The notes: generated by a model not told the origin, from the letters alone. 64,000 nucleotides of DNA from an uncultured Planctomycetota bacterium (GCA_963845755.1 CAWJTV010000020.1:384001-448000), one strand, 5' to 3'; positions 3,551 through 56,132 are shown, counted from the first letter of the stretch. Numbers and translations are program-made.

Positions 3551-4843
3551 ATGCGGATGATCTCGATGCGATTCCTGGCCTGCGCCGTCTGTGTGTTGGC
3601 CCCGGTCTCGGTTCTCGCCCAACTCCAACCTCCCCCTCAACAGGAGGAGGAAAGGGACCAATCCTTCACGGCGCATGGCCTCGCGAAGGTGATAGAGCCA
3701 CGCATCCCTTCGTCTCTGGATGCAGTCCTTGACAAGGAGGTCGCCGGCCTGGCCGCGGGCCGTCATCCGGAGGTCCTGACCTGGGAACGCGTCTACGCCC
3801 TGGCCCTGGTCCGCGCCCGTGGCGGCGCTCGGCCGCGTACCGAGAGTCTCGACCCGAAGGCCCTTGCGGAACAGGCCGCGCGGTATGGGGTTGCCGACTT
3901 CGCCCGGTTCCGCAAGGAGTTCCTCGCCGCCGGTAGCCGTGACCATGACGGTCTCCGGGACCCGAGCGACGACCTCCTCGCGCTCCTGGGCAGGCTCAAG
4001 GGGATCGACCACACGAGACAGAATGTTACATTTTATGAGAATATCTTCAGATTAATGTCGGAGCTCGCTAAAGGTGAGTCTTCGGGAGTGACCCAGCTCA
4101 ATCTTGACCAGGTCGAGGACGTCAAGGTCAAGGCCCGCCAGAACCTGGACCACCAGATCGCCGAATACCGCAATCGTCTCGATCGGTTCAAGGTCGCGCT
4201 CGGCCTGTCTGTTCGCGCGCCGGTGGTGTTGGACCGGGAGAGTGTGGCGTCATTCGGGAGGGCGTTTGATCAGGCCCGGGACTGGCAAATGCGACCCGAC
4301 CGTACTCTCCGCGAACTTCCCCAGATCATCAAGAGACTGCCGGCCCTGGGTGAGGTCACGGTCGACGGCCGCCCCATCCTCACGCTGATGGGAGGGAATC
4401 CAGATCAGCAGGAAGAGGTACTGACCCGTGCGGCGCGTCTCGCGATCCAGAACCGGAGCGATCTCGACAAGGGCGGTGCTCCCGGAGATGCCGCCGCCGC
4501 CGCACTCGAGGTGAACGTCCGGCGCCGGATCCGTCGGTTGTTCGAGCTGCGCCGCGATTATGAGGCGCAGCAGCGACGCTACGAGCTGTCCATCCGGCTG
4601 CTGGATCAGGGGCTTGAGCAAATCTTCGCTCAGTCCAAGATCAGCGCACTCGCGATCTCGGCCAGGGTCGCCAGTGGCATCACCGGTCTCCTCGCGCCGG
4701 AGAATCAGCGGCTCAACGCGGAGGGCCAGCTCACCACCCTCTGGACTTCATTCCAGATGGAGCGGCTGGCCTTATACCGGGAGCTCGGAAGCCTCCCCTA
4801 CGACGATTGGAACTCCTTCTACAAAGATCTCTCGGCCCGATGA
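3551..4843 (+). CDS. Exported helical protein, distant TolC-like (paralog 2)
   Basis: Clear paralog of 2195..3466 (shared LTWERVYALALV, GGNPDQQEEVLTRAAR, PYDDWN..KDLSAR). RBS GGAGG before ATG 3551. Confidence 0.5.
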   Translation: MRMISMRFLACAVCVLAPVSVLAQLQPPPQQEEERDQSFTAHGLAKVIEPRIPSSLDAVLDKEVAGLAAGRHPEVLTWERVYALALVRARGGARPRTESLDPKALAEQAARYGVADFARFRKEFLAAGSRDHDGLRDPSDDLLALLGRLKGIDHTRQNVTFYENIFRLMSELAKGESSGVTQLNLDQVEDVKVKARQNLDHQIAEYRNRLDRFKVALGLSVRAPVVLDRESVASFGRAFDQARDWQMRPDRTLRELPQIIKRLPALGEVTVDGRPILTLMGGNPDQQEEVLTRAARLAIQNRSDLDKGGAPGDAAAAALEVNVRRRIRRLFELRRDYEAQQRRYELSIRLLDQGLEQIFAQSKISALAISARVASGITGLLAPENQRLNAEGQLTTLWTSFQMERLALYRELGSLPYDDWNSFYKDLSAR

Positions 4844-5055: not shown

Positions 5056-5355
5056 ATGAGCCCCGATACCCAGACGACCTCGTCCGATCTCGTGCGCTGG
5101 ACGTTCACGATCAACCCGGACCACCGAACCGAGATCGAGAACCATCTGATTGACCTCGGCGCCGATGTCCTCGTCCGGGAGGGGAGCGAGTTCCTCGTGA
5201 CCTGGGATGAGCCCAATGAAGATCTGGCCGAGGTGGTCGAAGCCATCTGGTCCCTCAATGGCGAGCCGTTCGACGTGATCCAGGAAGAGTTCCAGCGGCT
5301 GGGTCTCCATACGCTCCATTTCTCCGAGGATGAGCCGGCCCAGGAAGCGGCGTGA
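5056..5355 (+). CDS. Small acidic hypothetical protein
   Basis: Strong RBS AAGGAGGT; 99-aa ORF with protein-like composition. Confidence 0.65.
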
Positions 5356-5371: not shown

Positions 5372-6242
5372 TCAGGAGAGCGGAATTTCCCGCGCGCGCC
5401 GCCCGGCCTGGTCGCGGAGCCAGCCATACCAGGCATCCAGGTGATCGCCGCGCGTTGCCGAGACTTGCAGGATCTGGATCTTGGGATTGACCTGCCTCGC
5501 ATATCCGATGCAGCGCTCCACGTCGAACTTGGACATACGGGAGCAGGTCGATCTTGTTCAGGATCATGAGTTCGCTTGCTCGGAACATGTGCGGATACTT
5601 GATCGGTTTGTCATCCCCCTCGGTGACGGAGACGATCACCACCTTCGCCCACTCGCCGAGGTCGAAGAGTGCCGGGCAGACCAGGTTGCCGACGTTCTCG
5701 ATCATCACCACCGAGCCTTGCGGCGGGTTGAGTTGTGGCAAGGCGCGGCCGATCATCGAGGCGTCGAGGTGGCAGGCCGTCCCTGTATTGATCTGGACGA
5801 CCGGGCAGCCGGTGGCTTGAATCCGCTGTGCATCGTGGAGCGTTTGCTGATCGCCTTCGATGACGGAGATCGGTATCTCCCCGCCCAGGTCGGTGATGGT
5901 GCGTTCCAGCAATGTCGTCTTGCCCGCCCCGGGTGAACTCACAAGGTTAAGGGCCAGGATGTCCCGGCCAGCCAGCCAGCCCCGGACCCGCTCCGCAAGC
6001 TGGTTGTTCCGGGACAAGACCTCCTGCTCGAGCGAGATGACGGTGCCGTGCTGATGAGAATGCGTGTGATCCTCGACATGGTCATGATCGTGGTCGTGGT
6101 GATGGTGATGGTGGTGCCCCTCGTGCCCATGATCGTGGGGATGTGAGTGATGATGGACGGGATTCAAGATGAGGGTTTCCCCGCTTTGCAGGTTGGTGAG
6201 TTTGGTCTCGGACTCGTCCGAGCAGCCGCAGGTTGCGCACAT
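5372..6242 (-). CDS. hypB: Hydrogenase nickel incorporation GTPase HypB (frameshift near 5530)
   Basis: MCATCGC N-terminus, His-rich linker, [29 protein letters not shown]-terminus continues in another frame to TGA at 5372. Confidence 0.92.
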
Positions 6243-47839: not shown

Positions 47840-47914
47840 CAGGGCGTGGGAAAGCCTGGTTAATCCGCGAGCTCGGGGAGCTCGAGATCGCCGGTTCAAA
47901 TCCGGCCGCCCTGA
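47840..47914 (+). tRNA. tRNA-Pro (GGG; C at position 33)
   Basis: Acceptor CAGGGCG/CGCCCTG, anticodon stem CGAGC/GCTCG with loop TCGGGGA, GGTTCAAATCC T-arm. No encoded CCA. Confidence 0.8.
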
Positions 47915-48004
47915 CACTCTGACATACGTAGGATATTCGGCCTCGGGAGGGAGGTGTTGAGATGGATGCGCGAGTCAAACGCATACCCCGGAGAGGCGAT
48001 CGCC

Positions 48005-48076
48005 GGGGTCGTGATGTAAAGGCAGCATATCGGCCTTTTAAGCCGGGAAGTGGGGGTTCGAGTCCCTCCGGCCCCA
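48005..48076 (+). tRNA. tRNA-Lys (TTT)
   Basis: Acceptor GGGGTCG/CGGCCCC, loop CTTTTAA, GGTTCGAGTCC. Confidence 0.85.
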
Positions 48077-48077
48077 A

Positions 48078-48149
48078 TGGCGCCTAGCTCAGCGGCAGAG
48101 CACTCCCCTTATAAGGGAGCGACGAGGGGTTCGAGTCCCCCGGCGCCGA
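48078..48149 (+). tRNA. tRNA-Ile (TAT anticodon)
   Basis: Acceptor TGGCGCC/GGCGCCG, D-arm GCTC/GAGC, stem CTCCC/GGGAG with loop CTTATAA, GGTTCGAGTCC. Confidence 0.85.
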
Positions 48150-48172
48150 CCGTCGAGGCCATCGCATGAGAG

Positions 48173-48243
48173 CGGCCCGTAGCTCAAGGGCAGAGCATCC
48201 GGCCGATAACCGGAAGACGAAGGTTCGACTCCTTCCGGGCCGA
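48173..48243 (+). tRNA. tRNA-Ile (GAT; C at position 33)
   Basis: Acceptor CGGCCCG/CGGGCCG, stem TCCGG/CCGGA with loop CCGATAA, GGTTCGACTCC. Confidence 0.85.
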
Positions 48244-48315
48244 CTCGTGTTGAGTGAGATCTCGCCCCGCGAAGGGACCAAAGTTCTCGTGGCAGAGCGC
48301 CCGGCTCTTCCTTGC

Positions 48316-48735
48316 TCATGGCGGATCGGCGGATCCACTCCCGCTCCACGTTTCCGCGGGTAACCTGCGAGCGAGCAGGAAAACCTGGACCATAGTACCA
48401 CTCGTAAACGCCTGCACCACAGTGCCGGTCGTCGTCTCAACTTCCGCGGTGGCCTCGCGCACCTCCACACCCGTGATTCGCCGGATTTCCTTCCGCAGTG
48501 GCTCGGAAGTTGATGTGAATAACTGACGATGAAACTCCTGCACTCGAGCGGCACCTTCCGGCGTCCTGGCCAGGTCCTTCTCCGCCGGCGACAAAGACCC
48601 GTGGAGCGTGACGACCAACGTGTCCTCACTCACGACCACCGTCGCCGATGCGGGCAAGTGGCCAGTTCGTCGCAGCTCGAAGGCGATGGCTGCCTCGGCG
48701 ATCTGCTGCGCCAGGGTCGAATCGGGCTTGAGCAT
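48316..48735 (-). CDS. DUF2294 (MpsC-like) family protein
   Basis: QQIA..A.AFE..RTGH.P..ATVV..DTLVVTLHG.LSPAEK.LA, FHRQLF, ITGVEV. Confidence 0.8.
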   Translation of the reverse strand: MLKPDSTLAQQIAEAAIAFELRRTGHLPASATVVVSEDTLVVTLHGSLSPAEKDLARTPEGAARVQEFHRQLFTSTSEPLRKEIRRITGVEVREATAEVETTTGTVVQAFTSGTMVQVFLLARRLPAETWSGSGSADPP

Positions 48736-48779
48736 CGAGATCACCCCTATCGCTTACGGCCGTCCTGCACCACCGCTAG

Positions 48780-48890
48780 AAAAAAAGCCGACGTGGTGGA
48801 ACACCCAGGGGTATTCGACCATGTCGGCTTACTCGGCAACGGGCCCCCCGGTTCAGCCGGGTTACCCTTCATCTAGTCGTCCGACGACAT
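48780..48890 (-). promoter_or_regulatory. Structured leader motif copy 1 (riboswitch/attenuator candidate) upstream of DUF2294
   Basis: GTCGTCGGACGACTAGATG..CCGG..CCGG..CGAGT-AAGCCGAC..GTCGGCTTTTTTT. Ends in an intrinsic terminator. Confidence 0.75.
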
Positions 48891-48947
48891 TGATTCAAGT
48901 TCCTGAGAACCGACTGCCAGTCGGCCTCGGCTCGATTCGTCACGCCA

Positions 48948-48977
48948 ATTGTGCACTGACCAAAATGGAAAAGGCAA
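48948..48977 (-). promoter_or_regulatory. Sigma70-like promoter for leader copy 1
   Basis: TTGCCT-N18-CACAAT, 58 nt upstream of the motif. Confidence 0.45.
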
Positions 48978-49108
48978 GTGAAATATCCTTCGCTTTCTTG
49001 TATGTTGGTCTTCGGCTAGTCCGAGTATCGGCGACGCGACCTCGGACGCCGGAAGGAGACGATCTTCTACGGCGGCCACGCGATCCGGAAGTGGACGGCG
49101 AAGTCGGC

Positions 49109-49168
49109 ACGAGAAAGCACGGAGAGATCGAGGCCGCCATCAGCGAAGGGATCACCGGCTTCGAACAG
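49109..49168 (+). pseudogene. DUF2294 N-terminal remnant
   Basis: (ACG)RKHGEIEAAISEGITGFEQ versus MKTQGEIEAAICEGINRFEQ of 54206..54586. Confidence 0.65.
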
Positions 49169-49268
49169 GTGATCCAGTCCCTCATCGACCTTATCCGGAC
49201 CGCACAGGCGGGAACTGGGTAAGCTGGTCTCGCCGTCTCAACGCCAAATTCCATTGCGGGGTTAGCCC

Positions 49269-49727
49269 TCATCTGGCTATAACGTTCGATGCTTCTATGA
49301 TCATCCATCTGTTGGGGATCGGCCCATCCTTCGATTCGCACGAGGTGCTCTCGAACTGCCCGGCCAAGGCCCCGGGGTCTCTGTCCGATCCAGGATCTTC
49401 CGACACCCGGCAGGCGGCCAGATCATCCGCAGCCGGCAACGTATTCCTGTACCCGAGCACGGCCTCGAGTTGGTCCTGGAGCCTCAAACTGTGTGTGTGG
49501 AGCAACGTCAGCGACTTCCTTAATCTCTCATTCTCATCCTTCAACTCCTGGAATTCTTCACTAATCGCGGAATCCTTCCCGTCCTGCACGGCGGCCACCT
49601 GTTCGACCATCGGTATCATCTCGGCACCATGGGATGTCACGGATCTTCGATAGGCCTGTCGAAGGGCTCGCTTGGCCTCAAAGAATCGCCGAAGAGCCGA
49701 CCGCAATTCGTGTGGGTCTACATTCAC
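49269..49727 (-). CDS. Hypothetical coiled-coil protein
   Basis: 152-aa ORF with RBS AAGGAG upstream and a heptad segment EEFQELKDENERLRKSL. Confidence 0.55.
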   Translation of the reverse strand: MNVDPHELRSALRRFFEAKRALRQAYRRSVTSHGAEMIPMVEQVAAVQDGKDSAISEEFQELKDENERLRKSLTLLHTHSLRLQDQLEAVLGYRNTLPAADDLAACRVSEDPGSDRDPGALAGQFESTSCESKDGPIPNRWMIIEASNVIAR

Positions 49728-49877
49728 CTTGCATTCTCCTTATGGTCCGCTCCGGTGGGGAAATCGCCCGGAGCAGCGCCTTCTCGAATCCGTCCCGGCC
49801 GCCTCGACGAGAAGGGACGTCGCAGGGATGCGGCATCGCGCCCGCCTCATGTCTGGAAGATCGATTCCGAAGGGTAG

Positions 49878-50168
49878 TTACTGTCCTTCCGGACCGTCCA
49901 CCAAGCCACCGATCCTCAGGAAGTCCCGGGCCTCGGGCACCATCACCATCACCACGCCGTCCTGGTCCGTCAGCACCTCGAGGATGAACCAATGCTGGCA
50001 CCCAGCGCAGATGCCAAGCAGCCTGTCGGGAGACCCGGGATCGGGTTGGTGCAGATCGAGGCCGATATCACAAGACAGACACGTGACTCGAGAGAAGTCA
50101 TCGTGCGAGGTCGAGAAGCGAGTTACCGTCAGCGAGACCAATGCCGTGACCGGAGTTTTGGGACTCAT
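49878..50168 (-). CDS. Small zinc-ribbon-like protein
   Basis: [22 protein letters not shown] overlap with the upstream HTH gene. Confidence 0.65.
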
Positions 50169-50449
50169 GGTGGTTGCCCCTCGATCTGGAACCGAAGCAG
50201 CTGCGGTTCGCCGTAATCGGCCAGACCTCTTTCACCTTCGCCGGTCAGGAGCCAATAGGGTTCGGCCCCCGTGGCATCGATGAAGCGGAGGAGTACCAAC
50301 CCGGGGATTGTCACTCCGGACTCGTAATGAGCCCAGGTCCGGGCGGGGATACCCAGCGCCTCAGCCATGAGAGGCGCGCCATTTTCGCCATAGATCTCGA
50401 GGCGGACTTCGCGCAGACGGCGGGCCAACGCGTCGCTTTCTGGCTTCAT
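50165..50449 (-). CDS. XRE-family HTH regulator
   Basis: [33 protein letters not shown]. Confidence 0.8.
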
Positions 50450-50470
50450 CGCCGCTACCCTTTCTCGAAG

Positions 50471-50580
50471 AAAAAGGCCGACGTGGAGGAATACCTTCGG
50501 GTACTCCTCCACGTCGGCCTACTCGTCAACGAGCCCTCCGGCCGTGCCGGGTTGCCCCTCATCTAGTCTTCCGACGACAT
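50471..50580 (-). promoter_or_regulatory. Structured leader motif copy 2 upstream of the XRE gene
   Basis: Same motif. Terminator AGGCCGACGTGGAGGA..TCCTCCACGTCGGCCTTTTT. Confidence 0.75.
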
Positions 50581-50637
50581 CTGATAATGCTTCATCGGAG
50601 CCGAGTACGATTGCATACCAACTCCGCTACACCCCTA

Positions 50638-50666
50638 ATCATGACGATCAGGATGGAGGAAAACAA
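50638..50666 (-). promoter_or_regulatory. Sigma70-like promoter for leader copy 2
   Basis: TTGTTT-N17-CATGAT, 58 nt upstream of the motif. Confidence 0.45.
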
Positions 50667-50836
50667 GTCACTGCCACTCGAACTGCCCGTATCATGAATC
50701 CCGGATCTCCCGAGGACACACGCTCCGAGACCGGCAAACCCACCGAGGAGACCGAGAGCGGCATCCCCAGAGTGTGACCGCGCGGCGGATCCGCCGAGAT
50801 TTCGAAGAATGGTTTGGAAATTCCTTGAATTCCGCG

Positions 50837-51557
50837 TCACAGCCGAACGTCCTGGGCGAAGCTCGCGACCCTGGCGAGCGGCTGGAGGGGCACATCGTGA
50901 GCCGCCGGCACGAACGGCACGACGACCTTGAGGATGAACCGGTAGTGGGCCAGGCTGCCCGCCAGCACGAACAGGTGGAACAGCTCATGGGTCCCGAAGA
51001 TCCCCGGGTAGAGGACGGGCCAGTGGAGTAGGTTGAGCACGGCCCCCAGGCTGTAGGAGAGGCCGCCGCCCACGATCGGAAGCAACTGCGCGGTGCGACA
51101 CAACCTGCGCGATCTCGGAATAGCAGACGAGGGAGCCCCACCCCATCCCCAGGTACAGCCCGGTTGACCACGCGAGCGGGAAGTGCCGGCCGGTCGCGAT
51201 CAAGGCCGTGGCCATGGCCGCCACGCCCCAGACGATCGCCAGCGTCCACTGCCGCCATCGGCCCCGCATCAAGCACCAGGCCAGCGGAGTATAGCTCCCG
51301 GCGATCAGCGCAAAGATCCCGACGCCGTCCAGGCGGGCGAACGTGGCGAGCTGGGCGGACGGCAGCCGAACGCCGTGAAAGAGGCTACTGGCCAAATAGC
51401 AGAAGGCCAGGGTCAGGCCATAGATGAGGAGGCTCAGCCGCTTCGGGGGCTGGCCTGCGCTTCGCCGCCAGAGGAAATAGGTACCGGGCAGTGCCAGGAG
51501 CAGGCCGGCACAATGACTCCAGGTGCTGACGGGCTCGCGAAAGTCGAGGAAGTTCAT
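50837..51557 (-). CDS. Hemolysin III / PAQR family membrane protein (frameshift near 51090)
   Basis: REPVSTWSH, SSLFH, LDGVGIFALIAGSYTP, YLGMGW, GTHELFHLFVLAGS..H. Confidence 0.88.
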
Positions 51558-51610
51558 CCGAAGACATCCGATAGGGCCTGATGTCGGGATAGGAGGTGGC
51601 TGCCAAGGGC

Positions 51611-52666
51611 TCAGACTTCGCACTCGTGGACCCAGGTGAAGCGGGTGGGCGGGCGTTTGGCGAGTGTTTCCGCGAGCTCGCCGGCGATGCGTTGATACTT
51701 CTCGGCCTGCTGGCAAAGGTAGTCCTGGGCCCTGGCCGCCTTCCCCGAGAGGGACCGATGCGCCACGCCCCAGACCTCGACGAGGTGTTCGATGATCTGC
51801 GCATAGGACAGGATAGTGTAGGCCCCGATCCGTTGCGAGACGATCGCGAAATGGTCGAACAGGTCGGGATCCTCGCCGTCGAACATGAAGCGTCCGGGCA
51901 TGGAGATGATGCCCTTGATCATCGACCGGAAGGCGATGATTCCCGTCTCCGGGTCTCGTTCCATGGCCTGGCCGACGACTCTCGTGTAGAACGTCTCGTG
52001 GCGCGCCTCGTCGCCGGCGATCCTCCGGCAGATCCTCGCGAGATTCTCATCCCCCTGCTGGGCGGCGAGCTTGCCCAGATTCCCGTGGGCGATCCGGGTC
52101 GCTCGCTCCTGGAAGGCGGCATAGATCAGCGCCGAGCAGTCGTCGCCCTTATTGCGCGAGTCGAATCCATTTCTGATGAGATGATGGATCGTCCGCTCGA
52201 TGGCTTGCATGTCCACCCGGCCCGTGAGCCGGAGGTAAGCGTTGAGCAGGTCGCCATGTCGGTTCTCCTCCGCCGTCCATCCCCGCAACCACTGAGCCCA
52301 GGGATCGTCGTCGATCCCGGACTGGTCTCGGGCGATGCGATTCAGCGAGATGGCGTAACTTGGCAGGGCCTCTTCCGTGACCATGTTCCCCACCAGCACG
52401 ACCAGCAGTTCGTGCGAGACCTGTCGCGCGGAAGTCCGGAACCGCGTCACTTGCTCGGCCCAATCTTCGGAGGTCAGATCGGGGAGGAAGTCGGTCGGCT
52501 GCCAGGCCTGATCCACGGGTGTGAGCAGCGCGAGGTTTTCCGCGACGAACCCTTGCAAATCCTCCATCAGTTCCATGTCGTGAGGCTCCTGGTCGATAGG
52601 GATGGTGCCGCTGATTGGCTCAATCCGATGCTCCTGTGAATCTTCCCGATCCTCGGCGGCACACAC
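51611..52666 (-). CDS. Acyl-ACP desaturase
   Basis: WQPTDFLPD, TEEALPSY, WTAEENRHGDLL, FQERAT..AH, DEARHE diiron motifs. Start uncertain. Confidence 0.92.
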   Translation of the reverse strand: MCAAEDREDSQEHRIEPISGTIPIDQEPHDMELMEDLQGFVAENLALLTPVDQAWQPTDFLPDLTSEDWAEQVTRFRTSARQVSHELLVVLVGNMVTEEALPSYAISLNRIARDQSGIDDDPWAQWLRGWTAEENRHGDLLNAYLRLTGRVDMQAIERTIHHLIRNGFDSRNKGDDCSALIYAAFQERATRIAHGNLGKLAAQQGDENLARICRRIAGDEARHETFYTRVVGQAMERDPETGIIAFRSMIKGIISMPGRFMFDGEDPDLFDHFAIVSQRIGAYTILSYAQIIEHLVEVWGVAHRSLSGKAARAQDYLCQQAEKYQRIAGELAETLAKRPPTRFTWVHECEV

Positions 52667-53555
52667 CGATCAGTTCGGTTTCGCTTTCCGGTGAAGGGCC
52701 CCGCGACCGCGGCATGGGGATCGTCCTGGGACGCTTCACACCGTGGGCCAGCCCGACCACGGCCAGGAGGCGGATCGCCCAGTAGGTCGCGTCGAGCTCC
52801 CACCAACGCAGGCCGTGCCGCGCCGAGGTCTGGGAGGCATGGTGGTTGTTATGCCAGCCCTCGCCGAAGGTGAGCAGGGCCACCCACCAGAGGTTCGTCG
52901 AGGTGTCGCGGGTCGGATAGCTGCGGTAGCCCCAGACGTGGGTGGCCGAGTTGACCAGCCAGGTCGAGTGCAACACCAGGCACGACCGGACGAAGCCGCC
53001 CCAGATCAGCCAGGGCAGGCCGCCCGCGGCGTAAAGGGCCGCGAACATCAGGAGCGGTAAGGTGAAGTGGAACCGGTCGAGCACGCGGTGGACCGGGTCT
53101 CGAGCGAGGTCGGGTGCCCACTTCGTGTAGTATTCCGGGACGTGGGTCCGGGCGACTTCGGGCGTGATCCACCAGAGCATATGAGCCCAGGCGAGGCCGT
53201 GGCCGGGGCTGTGGACGTCCTGCTCCTCGTCGGCGTGGGCGTGGTGCTTGCGGTGGTCGGCGACCCAGCCGATCGCCCCTCCCTCCGAGGCACAGCAGCC
53301 GATGGCCGTGAAGAGGTATTCGAGCCACCGAGGCCGAAGGGCGAAGCTGCGGTGCGTGAGGAGCCGGTGGTAGGTTAAGCAGATGCCGAGGCCGGCGGTG
53401 AGCCAGTAGAGGGACAGGCAGACGGCCGCAGCAGACCAGGTAAATAAGGCGGGCAAGAACGCCGCCAGGGCACCGACGTGCAGTCCGGCGATCCAGAGTA
53501 CGGCGGGCCACGCGATGCCAGACAACGCAGGCCGCGGCCGGGGGATCTCTCTCAT
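52620..53555 (-). CDS. Membrane delta-9-type fatty acid desaturase
   Basis: His boxes YHRLLTH, HRKHH, GWHNNHH. Confidence 0.92.
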   Translation of the reverse strand: MREIPRPRPALSGIAWPAVLWIAGLHVGALAAFLPALFTWSAAAVCLSLYWLTAGLGICLTYHRLLTHRSFALRPRWLEYLFTAIGCCASEGGAIGWVADHRKHHAHADEEQDVHSPGHGLAWAHMLWWITPEVARTHVPEYYTKWAPDLARDPVHRVLDRFHFTLPLLMFAALYAAGGLPWLIWGGFVRSCLVLHSTWLVNSATHVWGYRSYPTRDTSTNLWWVALLTFGEGWHNNHHASQTSARHGLRWWELDATYWAIRLLAVVGLAHGVKRPRTIPMPRSRGPSPESETELIGVCRRGSGRFTGASD

Positions 53556-53760
53556 GCAGGACTCACGATCGGGAAAAAGCCGAAGTTGATCGCTCCGCGC
53601 CACCGGGCTCGCCGGCGAGACCTCCTCACACGGAGGGGGCGACGTCGGGTGATGGGTTCGCCGACCCCGTCGCCACGACGAGGCGAGGGTGCCGGGATCG
53701 CGCTCTCGCGGGCCTCCGGTCCTCCCACAGCGTGCGCCATCAAAAGGTCGCGACAATTAG

Positions 53761-53788
53761 AGTATAGAAAGAATCTAATCCAATTCAA
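53761..53788 (-). promoter_or_regulatory. Sigma70-like promoter for the desaturase operon
   Basis: TTGAAT-N16-TATACT in an AT-rich divergent intergenic region. Confidence 0.45.
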
Positions 53789-53916
53789 TAGATCGACAAA
53801 TTTTTTTTGGATAAATCCTTGACATACTGGATTTAAAGCTTCTTGTCTGTTATAGTTCTTGATAAACAGAGGATTTGCACACCGGTGCTGGCTTTTCCTG
53901 GATTGTGATGGTGGGG

Positions 53917-54129
53917 ATGATGGCGAAGCCGGAGCGGAGGAGGCCGGGACGTCCCCGGCGTGAGGCGTCGAGGCGCGAGACGGTCGTCGCGATCAAGGGC
54001 TCGACGGAATGGAAATCGTGGCTCGACGAGTTCTCGACCCATTGCCGGCTGGGGCTCTCCGACACGATCGAGCAATCGCTGGTCTACTACGCCGAGGAGC
54101 GTGGTTACCGGGAGCCGCCCAAGCGTTGA
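53917..54129 (+). CDS. Small hypothetical, possibly ribbon-helix-helix DNA-binding protein
   Basis: RPGRP basic N-terminus, VVAIKG strand followed by two helices. Confidence 0.55.
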   Translation: MMAKPERRRPGRPRREASRRETVVAIKGSTEWKSWLDEFSTHCRLGLSDTIEQSLVYYAEERGYREPPKR

Positions 54130-54205
54130 GGGCCTGCTCGACCCCCGTGAGGAGCTCTCTCGTGGCAGCCGGGTAATGCGGGAGTGGTAGGCGAGCGAGG
54201 GCACC

Positions 54206-54586
54206 ATGAAAACGCAGGGGGAAATCGAAGCCGCCATCTGCGAAGGAATCAATCGCTTCGAGCAGGAATACATGGGCCGGGGACCCAAGGACATCCGGGC
54301 GCACTTGATCGGTGATCTCCTCGTCGTCCGACTCCAGGGCGTCCTGACCGCCGCTGAACAGCATCTGGTCAAATCGCTCCCGGCCGAGAAGGGACGAGAT
54401 TTGCTCAAGCAAGTCCGGACCCATCTGCTCGAAACCGCTCGGCCGTTCCTGGAAGCGATGGTCCGCGAGATCACCGGCATAGCGGTGCTCAGCCTGCACC
54501 ATGACATCAGCACCACCACCGGCGAAGAAATCGTGTTGTTCACCCTGTCCGAGCCGGTGCCCGTCCGCGAGACGAGGAAGAAGTAA
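54206..54586 (+). CDS. DUF2294 (MpsC-like) family protein
   Basis: MKTQGEIEAAI, YMGRGPKDI, GVLTAAEQ.L, GRDLLKQVR, LHHDIST.TGE. Confidence 0.9.
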   Translation: MKTQGEIEAAICEGINRFEQEYMGRGPKDIRAHLIGDLLVVRLQGVLTAAEQHLVKSLPAEKGRDLLKQVRTHLLETARPFLEAMVREITGIAVLSLHHDISTTTGEEIVLFTLSEPVPVRETRKK

Positions 54587-54851
54587 CTCGCTTGGATCGA
54601 GGATCCCGCGATCGTCGAGATTCATGCCGATTACGCCCACCGGAACCCACGGTGGAGGACCACACATCCTCTCGGAAGGTCACGCCCGCGGATGCTCAGC
54701 CTCCAGATCGCCACGCCGGCCGCATTCTCCCCCGTGCAGAAAGCCGTACCGACCGACGCCAATTCGTCCAGCGTCTCCAGCACTTCGATCGTGCCGCCGA
54801 CGTGGCGGCGCAGCAGCGCTCCGTAGGAGGGCCCGGCGCTCGTAAAGTATA

Positions 54852-55061
54852 TCAAGGGCTCACCTTCGCATCGCCCGAAAAATCGTTGATTTCCCGCTCC
54901 GCCTCGTCTCTCGCGTAGCCATACTTTCGTTGAAGGAGGCTGGAGAGTTGTTCGCGCTTGCCGCTGAATGTCGTCAGGTCGGCGTCTGTCAGCTTGCCCC
55001 ACTTCGCTTTGACCTTCTCCGTGAAATGCTTCCAGTCGCCCGCGATCTCGTACCAGATCAT
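54852..55061 (-). CDS. CsbD/UPF0337 (YjbJ-like) stress protein
   Basis: W.EIAG.WK.F..KVK.KWGKLTD.DL..GKREQL...LQ.KYG. Confidence 0.85.
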   Translation of the reverse strand: MIWYEIAGDWKHFTEKVKAKWGKLTDADLTTFSGKREQLSSLLQRKYGYARDEAEREINDFSGDAKVSP

Positions 55062-55282
55062 GATTGACATCCTAACGCGGCACAGCCGCAACCCGAAGGA
55101 TCGGGGGTTCTCCCCTGTGCGCGGGACTCCCGACCCCGCCCCGGACCGACTGCCGTTCTCCCAGGTTATCACAACGTACTCCAGGTTGTGCGCACGACGA
55201 GGATGGAAAGGAATCTCGAGGACTTGCGACACGAGAACGAGTCCAGCAAGCCCCGAGCGACCCGGTGCCTCGACGGACGCCT

Positions 55283-55516
55283 TCACTTGCTCGATTGCGC
55301 GTGCGCATCCGCCGAGTGCTGATGAGCTTGCTCGCTGTGCCGATTCGCGGACTCGGAGTGCTTCTTGGCCGACTCGTGCTCTCCCACTTCGTGGTGGTGG
55401 GCCGCCTCGAGGTGATGATGAGCGGCGGCCGTGTGGTGGGTCGCGGCCCTGTGGTGGTACTCGGCTGGTGTGCGTTTCCTGGTCGTCGCCGAGGCGTTCT
55501 TGGTGGTTGTGGCCAT
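55283..55516 (-). CDS. Small His/Ala-rich helical protein
   Basis: RBS GAGAGGAG; EYHHRAATHHTAAAHHHLEAAHHHEVGEHE. Confidence 0.75.
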   Translation of the reverse strand: MATTTKNASATTRKRTPAEYHHRAATHHTAAAHHHLEAAHHHEVGEHESAKKHSESANRHSEQAHQHSADAHAQSSK

Positions 55517-55633
55517 GGTTCGATTCTCCTCTCGAAGGATTGAAACCGCGCTCGTCCGCGTTCCGTTCATGACTAACCGGCCAGCCCGCAGAATCGCCGT
55601 TTCTCGGCGAAGGCCGAACAGTAAGCCTCAAGC

Positions 55634-55743
55634 AAAAAAAAAGACGTGGAGGAATACCCTGAGGCATTCGACCACGCCGGCTTACTCGTTGACGAGCCCC
55701 CCGGTCCGGCCGGATTGCTCTTCATCTAGTCGTCCGACGACAC
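55634..55743 (-). promoter_or_regulatory. Structured leader motif copy 3 upstream of the His-rich protein
   Basis: Same motif. The terminator 3' arm is shortened (lacks GGC). Confidence 0.72.
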
Positions 55744-55803
55744 CTACTTTGATTCTCAACCGCGCCGACCGGTAATACCGAATCGGCACCGAGTTCGCCT
55801 CTC

Positions 55804-55831
55804 ATTATGACGCGCGGTGCTGAGGTAGCAA
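55804..55831 (-). promoter_or_regulatory. Sigma70-like promoter for leader copy 3
   Basis: TTGCTA-N16-CATAAT, 61 nt upstream of the motif. Confidence 0.5.
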
Positions 55832-55958
55832 GGAAATTCTTTTAATTCTTGTTTATGAAGGTCCCTCGATAGCCAAGTAGCGGGCGATTGGCGCGCGGGC
55901 ACCATCCGCGACAGGCCGGATCCGAGCCATCCGAGGAAAGCCGCACCTTGGAGGCCCG

Positions 55959-56132
55959 GTGAGAACGTTCAGAGAGATCGAAGCCGCGATCTCTGATGGG
56001 ATCGTTCCGATCGATCACTGCGAGCAGGAATGGACAGGGGGACTCAGAGATACTGACAGGCACTCCCGTGGTGATCTCCTCGTGGGCCGTACGCGGCCCG
56101 ATGATAGCCGGGAAAAACTCCGAAACGCATGA
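55959..56132 (+). pseudogene. Degenerate truncated DUF2294 copy
   Basis: GGAGG plus GTG; RTFREIEAAISDGI..CEQEWTGGLRDTDRHSRGDLLVGR aligns to GEIEAAICEGI..FEQEYMGRGPKDIRAHLIGDLLVVR. Stops after 57 aa. Confidence 0.65.

Follow-up and report, generated by a model that had tools for sequence, protein, structure and literature searches.

Transcription-terminating riboswitches such as c-di-GMP-I (GEMM-I) and ydaO/c-di-AMP occur in many copies per genome, and terminator/antiterminator leaders that are controlled by a protein include the ribonucleic antiterminator (RAT) sites of BglG/SacY and the leaders of HutP, PyrR, TRAP and ANTAR targets. General stress regulons are defined by sigma factors, namely sigma-B in Bacillus, sigma-S in E. 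coli and EcfG in Alphaproteobacteria. For Planctomycetes, Rfam holds the Rhodopirellula-switch motif, an RNA with proposed alternative folds. Here we describe a family of leader RNAs present in three copies (A to C) on the minus strand of a 64,000-nucleotide (nt) stretch of DNA from an uncultured Planctomycetota bacterium (GCA_963845755.1; contig C20:384001-448000), referred to throughout as the window. Each copy carries its own promoter and terminator and stands before genes of a general stress regulon. The reading we favour, with moderate confidence, is that of a new cis-acting attenuator that is off by default, in which an internal loop would serve as a ligand- or ion-sensing, riboswitch-like switch.

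The leader shares with GEMM-I and ydaO its 5'-leader position, a structured sensor followed by a terminator that would share a strand with the sensor's putative closing helix, and its many copies per genome before functionally related, non-homologous genes. Unlike these classes it has no match in Rfam 15, its regulon is one of general stress, its promoter is conserved together with the RNA and a single type of expression platform is seen. With the protein-controlled leaders it shares a proposed choice between terminator and antiterminator and an anchor locus whose first gene could be the regulator itself. It differs from them in a conserved non-helical core that is larger than RAT, ANTAR or triplet-repeat sites, and in that their defining domains are not seen nearby: no ANTAR or CAT_RBD/PRD Pfam name occurs in 294 neighbouring proteins (20+83+28+97+66; whole genomes were not searched for these families). 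Like the regulons of sigma-B, sigma-S and EcfG, that of the leader includes CsbD, Dps, YflT, BON/OsmY and Transgly_assoc (YeaQ/YmgE) proteins together with a hibernation factor, glucose-6-phosphate dehydrogenase (G6PD) and PP2C/PAS signalling proteins. In contrast to those regulons, the shared element is a sigma70-like promoter joined to an RNA leader with a terminator, rather than a special promoter alone. Like the Rhodopirellula-switch the leader is a Planctomycete RNA for which alternative structures are proposed; unlike that Rfam motif, it is matched by no Rfam family.

Sensor, terminator and promoter of the leader

The initial annotation of the window had placed three copies of a motif of about 110 nt on the minus strand, and both a covariance model and a genome search recover them (48780-48889, 50470-50579 and 55633-55742 in covariance-model coordinates). 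A nucleotide search of the 14.27-Mb genome with copy A yields exactly seven full-length copies, far above chance (81–95% identity, E 4e-23 to 7e-44). Copies B and C are 81–82% identical to copy A (E 4e-23 and 2e-25), and four extra copies, 86–95% identical to it, lie within 14 kb of contig C23. The covariance model recovers the same seven, and the alignment of the window copies with those of contig C23 spans about 110 nt with 90% mean column identity.

Structure was assessed in two sets of instances. Set 1 (A6) comprises 87 instances from the window, contig C23 and the clusters of seven relatives; set 2 (A12) comprises 88 from other genomes, part of which were gathered with a pattern that fixes columns 6–27. 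The sensor is one irregular stem made up of P1, a large internal loop, P2a (GGGC/GCYC), an AA/GG bulge and P2b (CCCGG/CCGGG). In set 1 the model structure pairs 94.6% of cells and shows double changes in 27 of 37 pairs, with none of 500 shuffles as high and pairing falling to 37–56% in slid controls. Set 2 (n=88) agrees closely, with 93.3% paired, double changes in 30 of 37 pairs and again 0/500 shuffles as high. As in known riboswitches the sensor domain is structured and covaries: P2a and P2b are 97.4% and 96.5% paired in set 1, in set 2 P2 is 97.0% paired, and all nine of its pairs covary in both sets. The terminator helix is paired to 96.0% (set 1) and 94.7% (set 2), with 17 of its 23 pairs covarying in each. 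Its make-up, a G+C-rich stem-loop ahead of a U-tract, is that of an intrinsic (Rho-independent) terminator; it is predicted in 80 of 87 full-length minimum-free-energy folds, and 83 of 88 instances have a U-rich tail. The compensatory changes that the initial annotation had read from the window copies are real, both at the terminator base (AAGCC../..GGCUU versus AGGCC../..GGCCU) and in the inner stem (GGGU/GCCC, GGGC/GCUC and GAGC/GCUC); P2 and terminator covary strongly in both sets. The second partner it had proposed for GCUC is not upheld, since the CUCG/CGAG hairpin is 75.5% paired in 87 instances and shows no excess over shuffles.

About 27 unpaired bases of the RNA are highly conserved. 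The most invariant, G8 G9, G12 A13 C14, G72 U73 A74 and C77 C78, surround the large internal loop by P1, with G12 A13 C14 on its 5' side and G72 U73 A74 on its 3' side; G8 and G9 are invariant in 87/87 instances and A10 is at least 90% conserved. Other candidate structures were discarded. A 5' helix proposed by RNAalifold and model R1 (columns 3–7 with 18–22) is weak, at 83.7% and 79.6% paired, and is not relied on. The local GUCG/CGAC hairpin, the 4-base-pair (bp) version of GUC-GGAY-GAC, is 79.1% paired with no excess over shuffles and is rejected as a conserved helix. A leader-peptide attenuator is also rejected, because the in-motif ATG is not conserved: within one genome, copies have ACT or ATA in its place.

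Each window copy is preceded by a sigma70-like -10 box lying, as first described, 58–61 nt upstream of the motif (58, 58 and 61 nt for copies A, B and C), with a -35-like hexamer 16–18 nt above it (Table 1); a simple promoter scan detects the promoter of copy C only. Of 88 instances, 63 have a conserved promoter that lies 84–96 nt before the motif, its consensus being an A-rich stretch with GAATTCA, then CTTGCT and, 16–17 nt later, a GACAAT-like box. Conservation exceeds the hexamers: the A-rich stretch with GAATTCA is found about 85–125 nt upstream in most instances (for example at window 55831-55850) and may act as an UP element or bind a protein. Between promoter and motif lies a hairpin, P0, seen by eye in the sequences; RNAalifold predicts no P0 helix from a MAFFT alignment of this region. 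Its arm sequences vary, and the 3' arm is often GUCGGCUCC, resembling the 3' arm of the terminator. One P0 subtype (for example L073:15662-15748 and L069:3304-3390; L, G and C numbers are our labels for loci, genomes and contigs) has arms GGGAGUCGAC and GUCGGCUCCC, which mimic both arms of the terminator base, so that the P0 3' arm could also pair with the terminator 5' arm. Since P0 is missing from some members, whose promoter lies just some 40 nt before the motif, this hairpin lies outside the core and is dispensable. Overall, the structured, cis-located unit of promoter, leader and terminator that the initial annotation had described is supported.

A putative antiterminator and its proposed competition with the terminator

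The 5' (C)GUCGG of the leader can pair with CCGAC(G) at the base of the terminator 5' arm to form P1. Compatibility with this pairing is 96.7% in set 1 and 90.6% in set 2, and the inner four pairs are kept in at least 95%. Indirect support for P1 as a predicted antiterminator comes from the invariance of the CCG, from column 80 and from truncated folds. The CCG of the terminator base is nearly invariant in set 1 (83–86 of 87) while the upper stem covaries freely, which suggests a second constraint on that strand. Column 80 alternates between A and G together with its Watson-Crick partner in the 3' arm, and the P1 partner of this column remains U, able to pair with A as well as with G. When the RNA is cut short ahead of the terminator 3' arm, 66 of 87 folds contain P1 and 68 of 87 contain P2.

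Several points weigh against such a switch. P1 is almost without covariation: set 1 has two double changes to A-U and one to U-A, and set 2 has one. Because both strands are nearly invariant, with one to three double changes, the antiterminator is plausible rather than demonstrated by covariation, and is not proven; the pairing put forward in the initial annotation can form, but covariation does not bear it out. The outer two pairs fail in 13/83 and 30/86 set 2 sequences, and the inner bases were fixed by the collection pattern in part of that set. The terminator conformer is also favoured over the antiterminator conformer by about 12 kcal/mol. A search for other expression platforms with an aptamer-only model (R2) found none, and no translational variant; all real matches keep the terminator, and with the same platform in every one of them the aptamer may not be separable from the platform. 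Finally, the promoter is conserved as well and could itself be what mainly delimits the regulon.

In the mechanism we propose, each copy would be a self-contained transcription start comprising a strong sigma70-type promoter, usually P0, a sensor of about 65 nt, a long terminator and the regulated genes. By default the terminator of about 20 bp would win and transcription would end after about 170 nt. Binding of a ligand or factor to the internal loop would hold P1 co-transcriptionally so that the terminator cannot nucleate, and with P1 held the stress genes would be read through, giving an ON switch. The RNA family, P2, the terminator, the position in cis and the regulon are established by the data, whereas we infer that P1 and the terminator compete, that the switch runs in this direction and that its effector is a small molecule or an ion. 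Tandem complete leaders, about 180 nt apart on the same strand and before one gene, occur at L079:4318-4610 (G053; leaders at 4318-4428 and 4500-4610) and at L076:5174-5576 (G029; leaders at 5466-5576 and 5174-5282), arrangements that fit a regulatory element.

Alternatively, the leader could be constitutive, for example stabilising the 5' end or toning down strong promoters as a fixed attenuator, or it could sense temperature or ionic strength without a specific ligand. The terminator wins in most predicted full-length folds, cold- or membrane-related genes (fatty acid desaturases, ice-binding-like proteins) are found in the regulon, and P0 resembles a stabiliser. P0 is, however, dispensable, and this explanation, which we regard as unlikely, does not account for unpaired bases that are near-invariant across metagenome-assembled genomes (MAGs) labelled Isosphaeraceae, Gemmataceae, Tepidisphaeraceae/Phycisphaerae and Pirellulaceae.

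Stress genes downstream and the DUF2294-CsrA locus

The first downstream gene (score at least 10) is co-oriented with the leader in 81 of 88 instances, opposite in six and absent in one. Like a riboswitch, the leader therefore occupies the 5' untranslated region of the genes it faces, with a consistency unlike the random orientation of a mobile repeat that the initial annotation had named as refuting its reading. Genes were called with our own codon-bias script and their starts are consequently approximate. The gap to the co-oriented first gene has a median of 136 nt and is at most 60 nt in 22 of 81 cases, which after the U-tract is too short for a separate promoter. These arrangements bear on whether the copies chiefly form a family of small RNAs that act in trans, each of about 110–170 nt with its own promoter and terminator and with incidental read-through. 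Multi-copy families of small RNAs are known, every copy here has its own promoter and a strong terminator, instances 61 and 73 face a strong gene on the opposite strand instead of a co-oriented one, and terminated leaders would be plentiful and might work in trans as well. Against this stand the co-orientation, the genes without room for a promoter of their own and the recurrence of the same downstream gene families in two independent sets, and the unrelated, independently transcribed neighbours of a stand-alone small RNA are not what is found. We consider a mainly trans-acting family quite unlikely; the leader may have an additional role in trans.

By Pfam, the 83 first-gene proteins of set 1 comprise MpsC/DUF2294 (13), DUF3309 (11), hybrid histidine kinases/response regulators (about 6), SPFH (4), CsbD, Transgly_assoc, YflT and Peptidase_C92 (3 each) and ferritin/Dps, BON, desaturase and HPr (2 each), with single cases of CsrA, a sigma-70 family protein, PPK2, DUF1328 and others. 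Among 97 proteins encoded by second and third genes are DUF1328 (8), CsbD (5), Dps (4), phosphomannose isomerase (4), CsrA (3), Transgly_assoc (3) and G6PD (2), as well as PGI, PPK2, N-ATPase subunits, PAS-SpoIIE, BrkB and glycosyltransferases. The 66 first open reading frames (ORFs) of set 2, mostly cut, include MpsC (18), DUF3309 (4), CsbD (4), a hibernation factor, ECF sigma, KaiC, BON and YflT. Judged from sequence, the downstream gene content is that of a general stress regulon and not of a bicarbonate or single-metabolite pathway. The initial annotation had speculated on an inorganic-carbon signal from the kinship of DUF2294 with MpsC; this finds no support, as no MpsA/MpsB-type gene occurs in the 294 neighbouring proteins and the gene set is one of broad general stress. 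Its attention to DUF2294 was nevertheless justified, since this is the commonest downstream gene and the anchoring one. An ion or osmotic signal may still act here, and the regulon itself points to a stress alarmone or an ionic/osmotic signal as effector.

DUF2294 occurs as two subtypes, type 2 being about 25–30% identical to type 1 in a subtype alignment. Type 1 is the first gene after the leader, often followed by a CsrA paralog of 73–76 amino acids (aa). Such a paralog at L062:16833-17063 (minus strand; G000:C23:106833-107063) directly follows a leader-controlled DUF2294 gene, an order that recurs in G001, G012, G032 and others. Type 2, which lacks a leader, lies divergent from or beside leader promoters in 9–10 cases, a placement typical of a regulator gene; further examples are L062:3917-4297 and L062:17819-18259 (both plus strand), and type 2 scores 120–125 bits in Pfam. 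Type 1 is found in 20 of 61 relatives, 19 of which carry the motif, and because gene and motif are physically linked this indicates a shared module rather than independent co-evolution. CsrA is present in all 61 genomes, each with other CsrA copies; a close paralog (at least 54% identity) is found in 12 motif-bearing genomes and also, at 59% identity, in motif-less G051. A sequence search of the PDB finds no match for DUF2294, and the AlphaFold model of its type 2 (pLDDT, the predicted local distance difference test, 87) has no clear fold match: the best in Foldseek are TRAPP Bet3/TPC6 and H-NOX (E 0.012–0.03, template-modelling (TM) score 0.46), and the best in a VIA wide search reaches Z 6.7 with no family standing out.

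Given these features of the anchor locus, a protein effector is kept as a serious, if rather doubtful, rival. A protein from this locus would bind the 5' segment or the internal loop and decide between P1 and the terminator, much as in the autoregulated antiterminators BglG, HutP and PyrR, and the candidates are the CsrA paralog of the stress module, on the GGA of GUC-GGAY-GAC, and the DUF2294 protein. The anchor operon fits such an effector at least as well as a small molecule, which counts against a metabolite- or ion-sensing leader. The recurrent order of motif, type-1 DUF2294 and CsrA (L062, L081, L070, L069 and L082) agrees with it, as do the placement of type 2, the near-restriction of type 1 and the occurrence of the close CsrA paralog in motif-bearing genomes, and the conservation of G8, G9 and A10. 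These co-occurrences are, however, not independent, because DUF2294 and CsrA genes are physically linked to the motif, and the close paralog is found in G051 as well. For CsrA, whose leaders carry at least two GGA, one or more of them in a hairpin loop, there is a single conserved GGA, in the possible GUC-GGAY-GAC hairpin, and no second one within the motif; it turns into GGU or GGG in a few members, the GUC/GAC mini-hairpin is lost in divergent members, and the conserved unpaired bases exceed the needs of known CsrA sites. No RNA-binding fold stands out for the DUF2294 model, and no ANTAR, PRD or CAT_RBD name was met among the neighbouring proteins scanned.

The three units of the window are listed in Table 1. 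The terminator of copy B is also detected by a simple terminator scan, and that of copy C is only partly formed in the minimum-free-energy fold. Of the downstream genes named in the initial annotation, DUF2294 and the His-rich ORF are confirmed, whereas the XRE regulator is reduced to a weak helix-turn-helix (HTH) match below the cut-off. The stretch that separates copies B and C holds FA_desaturase_2 and FA_desaturase genes and a short C-terminal HlyIII fragment (51611-53555 and 50837-51073, minus strand), none with its own leader; a sigma70-like promoter match is at 53788-53761. Four tRNA genes (47840-48243, plus strand; Rfam tRNA, 52–67 bits) form a cluster that directly follows the DUF2294 gene of copy A and runs convergently to it. 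ORFs across 48000-56000 have low codon-bias scores compared with flanking genes, and the region may hold many very small genes or be a compositionally atypical island. Apparent frameshifts or splits are seen in leader-controlled genes at L082:15507-16022 and L062:14943-15613; type-1 DUF2294 of G001 spans two overlapping frames, and in the window's genome a 59-aa ferritin-like C-terminal fragment adjoins a 163-aa ORF.

Table 1. Leader units of the window and the genes beside them.
Feature	Position	Strand	Evidence or remark
Copy A, whole unit	48780..48977	-	Sequence, alignments, fold; model match 124.2 bits
Copy A, -35 TTGCCT	48977-48972	-	
Copy A, -10 CACAAT	48953-48948	-	
Copy A, 5' hairpin P0	about 48940-48900	-	
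Copy A, sensor domain (P1 5' strand, J1/2, P2, J2/1, P1 3' strand)	48886-48823	-	
Copy A, terminator stem	48830-48785	-	
Copy A, U-tract	48786-48780	-	
DUF2294/MpsC type-1 gene, 139 aa	48316..48735	-	Pfam PF10057, E 4.5e-22; starts 45 nt past copy A U-tract
Copy B, whole unit, including P0 hairpin	50470..50666	-	Model match 118.7 bits
Copy B, -35 TTGTTT	50666-50661	-	
Copy B, -10 CATGAT	50643-50638	-	
Copy B, sensor domain	50576-50513	-	
Copy B, terminator stem	50520-50475	-	U-tract to 50470
Operon after copy B	49269..50449	-	Own gene calls
Weak HTH protein, 94 aa (copy B operon)	50165-50449	-	Pfam HTH_19/HTH_31, E 0.006, below cut-off
ORF, 96 aa (copy B operon)	49878-50168	-	
Coiled-coil-like ORF, 113 aa (copy B operon)	49269-49610	-	
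Copy C, whole unit, including P0 hairpin	55633..55831	-	Model match 111.1 bits
Copy C, -35 TTGCTA	55831-55826	-	
Copy C, -10 CATAAT	55809-55804	-	
Copy C, sensor domain	55739-55676	-	Terminator shortened; long U-tract to 55633
Operon after copy C	54631..55516	-	ORFs and Pfam
His-rich ORF, 77 aa (copy C operon)	55283-55516	-	No Pfam match
CsbD-like protein, 69 aa (copy C operon)	54852-55061	-	Pfam CsbD, E 2.6e-13
ORF, 74 aa (copy C operon)	54631-54855	-	
DUF2294/MpsC type-2 paralog, 126 aa	54206..54586	+	Pfam E 2.6e-36; beside copy C operon, without own leader

Distribution of the leader and its implications

A covariance model (R1) built from the seven genome copies matches 22 of 61 related genomes, including 16 of 36 in the window's own family, and four other families of the class are also matched; the genomes behind these and the following counts are samples and not exhaustive. 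Because R1 match counts include reverse-strand matches to the palindromic terminator, full-length matches were counted instead; relatives hold up to at least 25 such copies, G035 having 25 at 70 bits or more. Copies are clustered, about 15 of them lying within 65 kb of contig C10 of that genome. Across the phylum 5 of 150 other genomes match; within the class, leaving out the window's own genome, model R2 matches 18 of 150 genomes of high quality. Scanning named genome records for an exact pattern gave at least 127 stretches, and nearly all of the matches listed are from MAGs labelled Isosphaeraceae/Isosphaerales, Gemmataceae, Planctomycetaceae, Pirellulaceae or Tepidisphaeraceae/Phycisphaerae. 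Also among the matches listed, L108-L110, L136, L161, L165, L169 and L171 are from MAGs labelled delta proteobacterium, Deltaproteobacteria, Solirubrobacteraceae, Sumerlaeia, Bacillota and Gammaproteobacteria, which could be mis-binned Planctomycete contigs or a real spread beyond the phylum. A multi-copy, clustered motif might also be expected of a mobile or selfish repeat similar to a miniature inverted-repeat transposable element. The fixed orientation toward genes, functional promoter geometry and RNA-type covariation argue against this, as do the orthologous positions of the motif beside the same gene families in different genomes, and we hold a mobile repeat to be very improbable; direct and inverted repeats of the window copies were checked via alignments only.

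The leader is previously undescribed. At the gathering score, Rfam 15 matches nothing in the whole window except the four tRNAs, and at E up to 10 it returns four chance-level matches in 48500-56000, the best, at 24 bits where the gathering score is 90, being MIR848 on the hairpin of the terminator; the novelty suspected in the initial annotation stands. No description of the motif or of a Planctomycete general-stress leader was found within the literature collection searched. One candidate for a prior description, PMC11109978, concerns, in the part available, the Streptococcus yjbJ motif, which is a different one.

Tentatively, the leader may belong to a new class of orphan riboswitches, one that responds to a stress alarmone or to an ionic/osmotic signal and through which soil Planctomycetota would control their general stress response as by a master switch. 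On this reading at least 25 operons per genome would share one promoter-plus-aptamer module, the response would be gated by antitermination at the RNA level and not (or not only) by sigma-factor partner switching, and the DUF2294-CsrA anchor operon would provide feedback.

Our results suggest that soil Planctomycetes may switch a whole stress regulon at the RNA level. If so, the leader would define a large and cleanly delimited regulon under RNA control, in a phylum where gene regulation has hardly been studied, and would be a possible case of an entire stress response gated by transcription attenuation. It would also be a new structured RNA whose highly conserved unpaired bases are targets for ligand tests, and the motif is present in several of the complete genomes searched, among them G053 (eight copies), G311, G265 and G266, which makes these ideas testable in practice. 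The list of co-regulated genes, including DUF2294, DUF3309 and DUF1328, would offer a handle on the content of the Planctomycete general stress response, and the leader would give DUF2294/MpsC-like proteins their first physiological context outside Staphylococcus.

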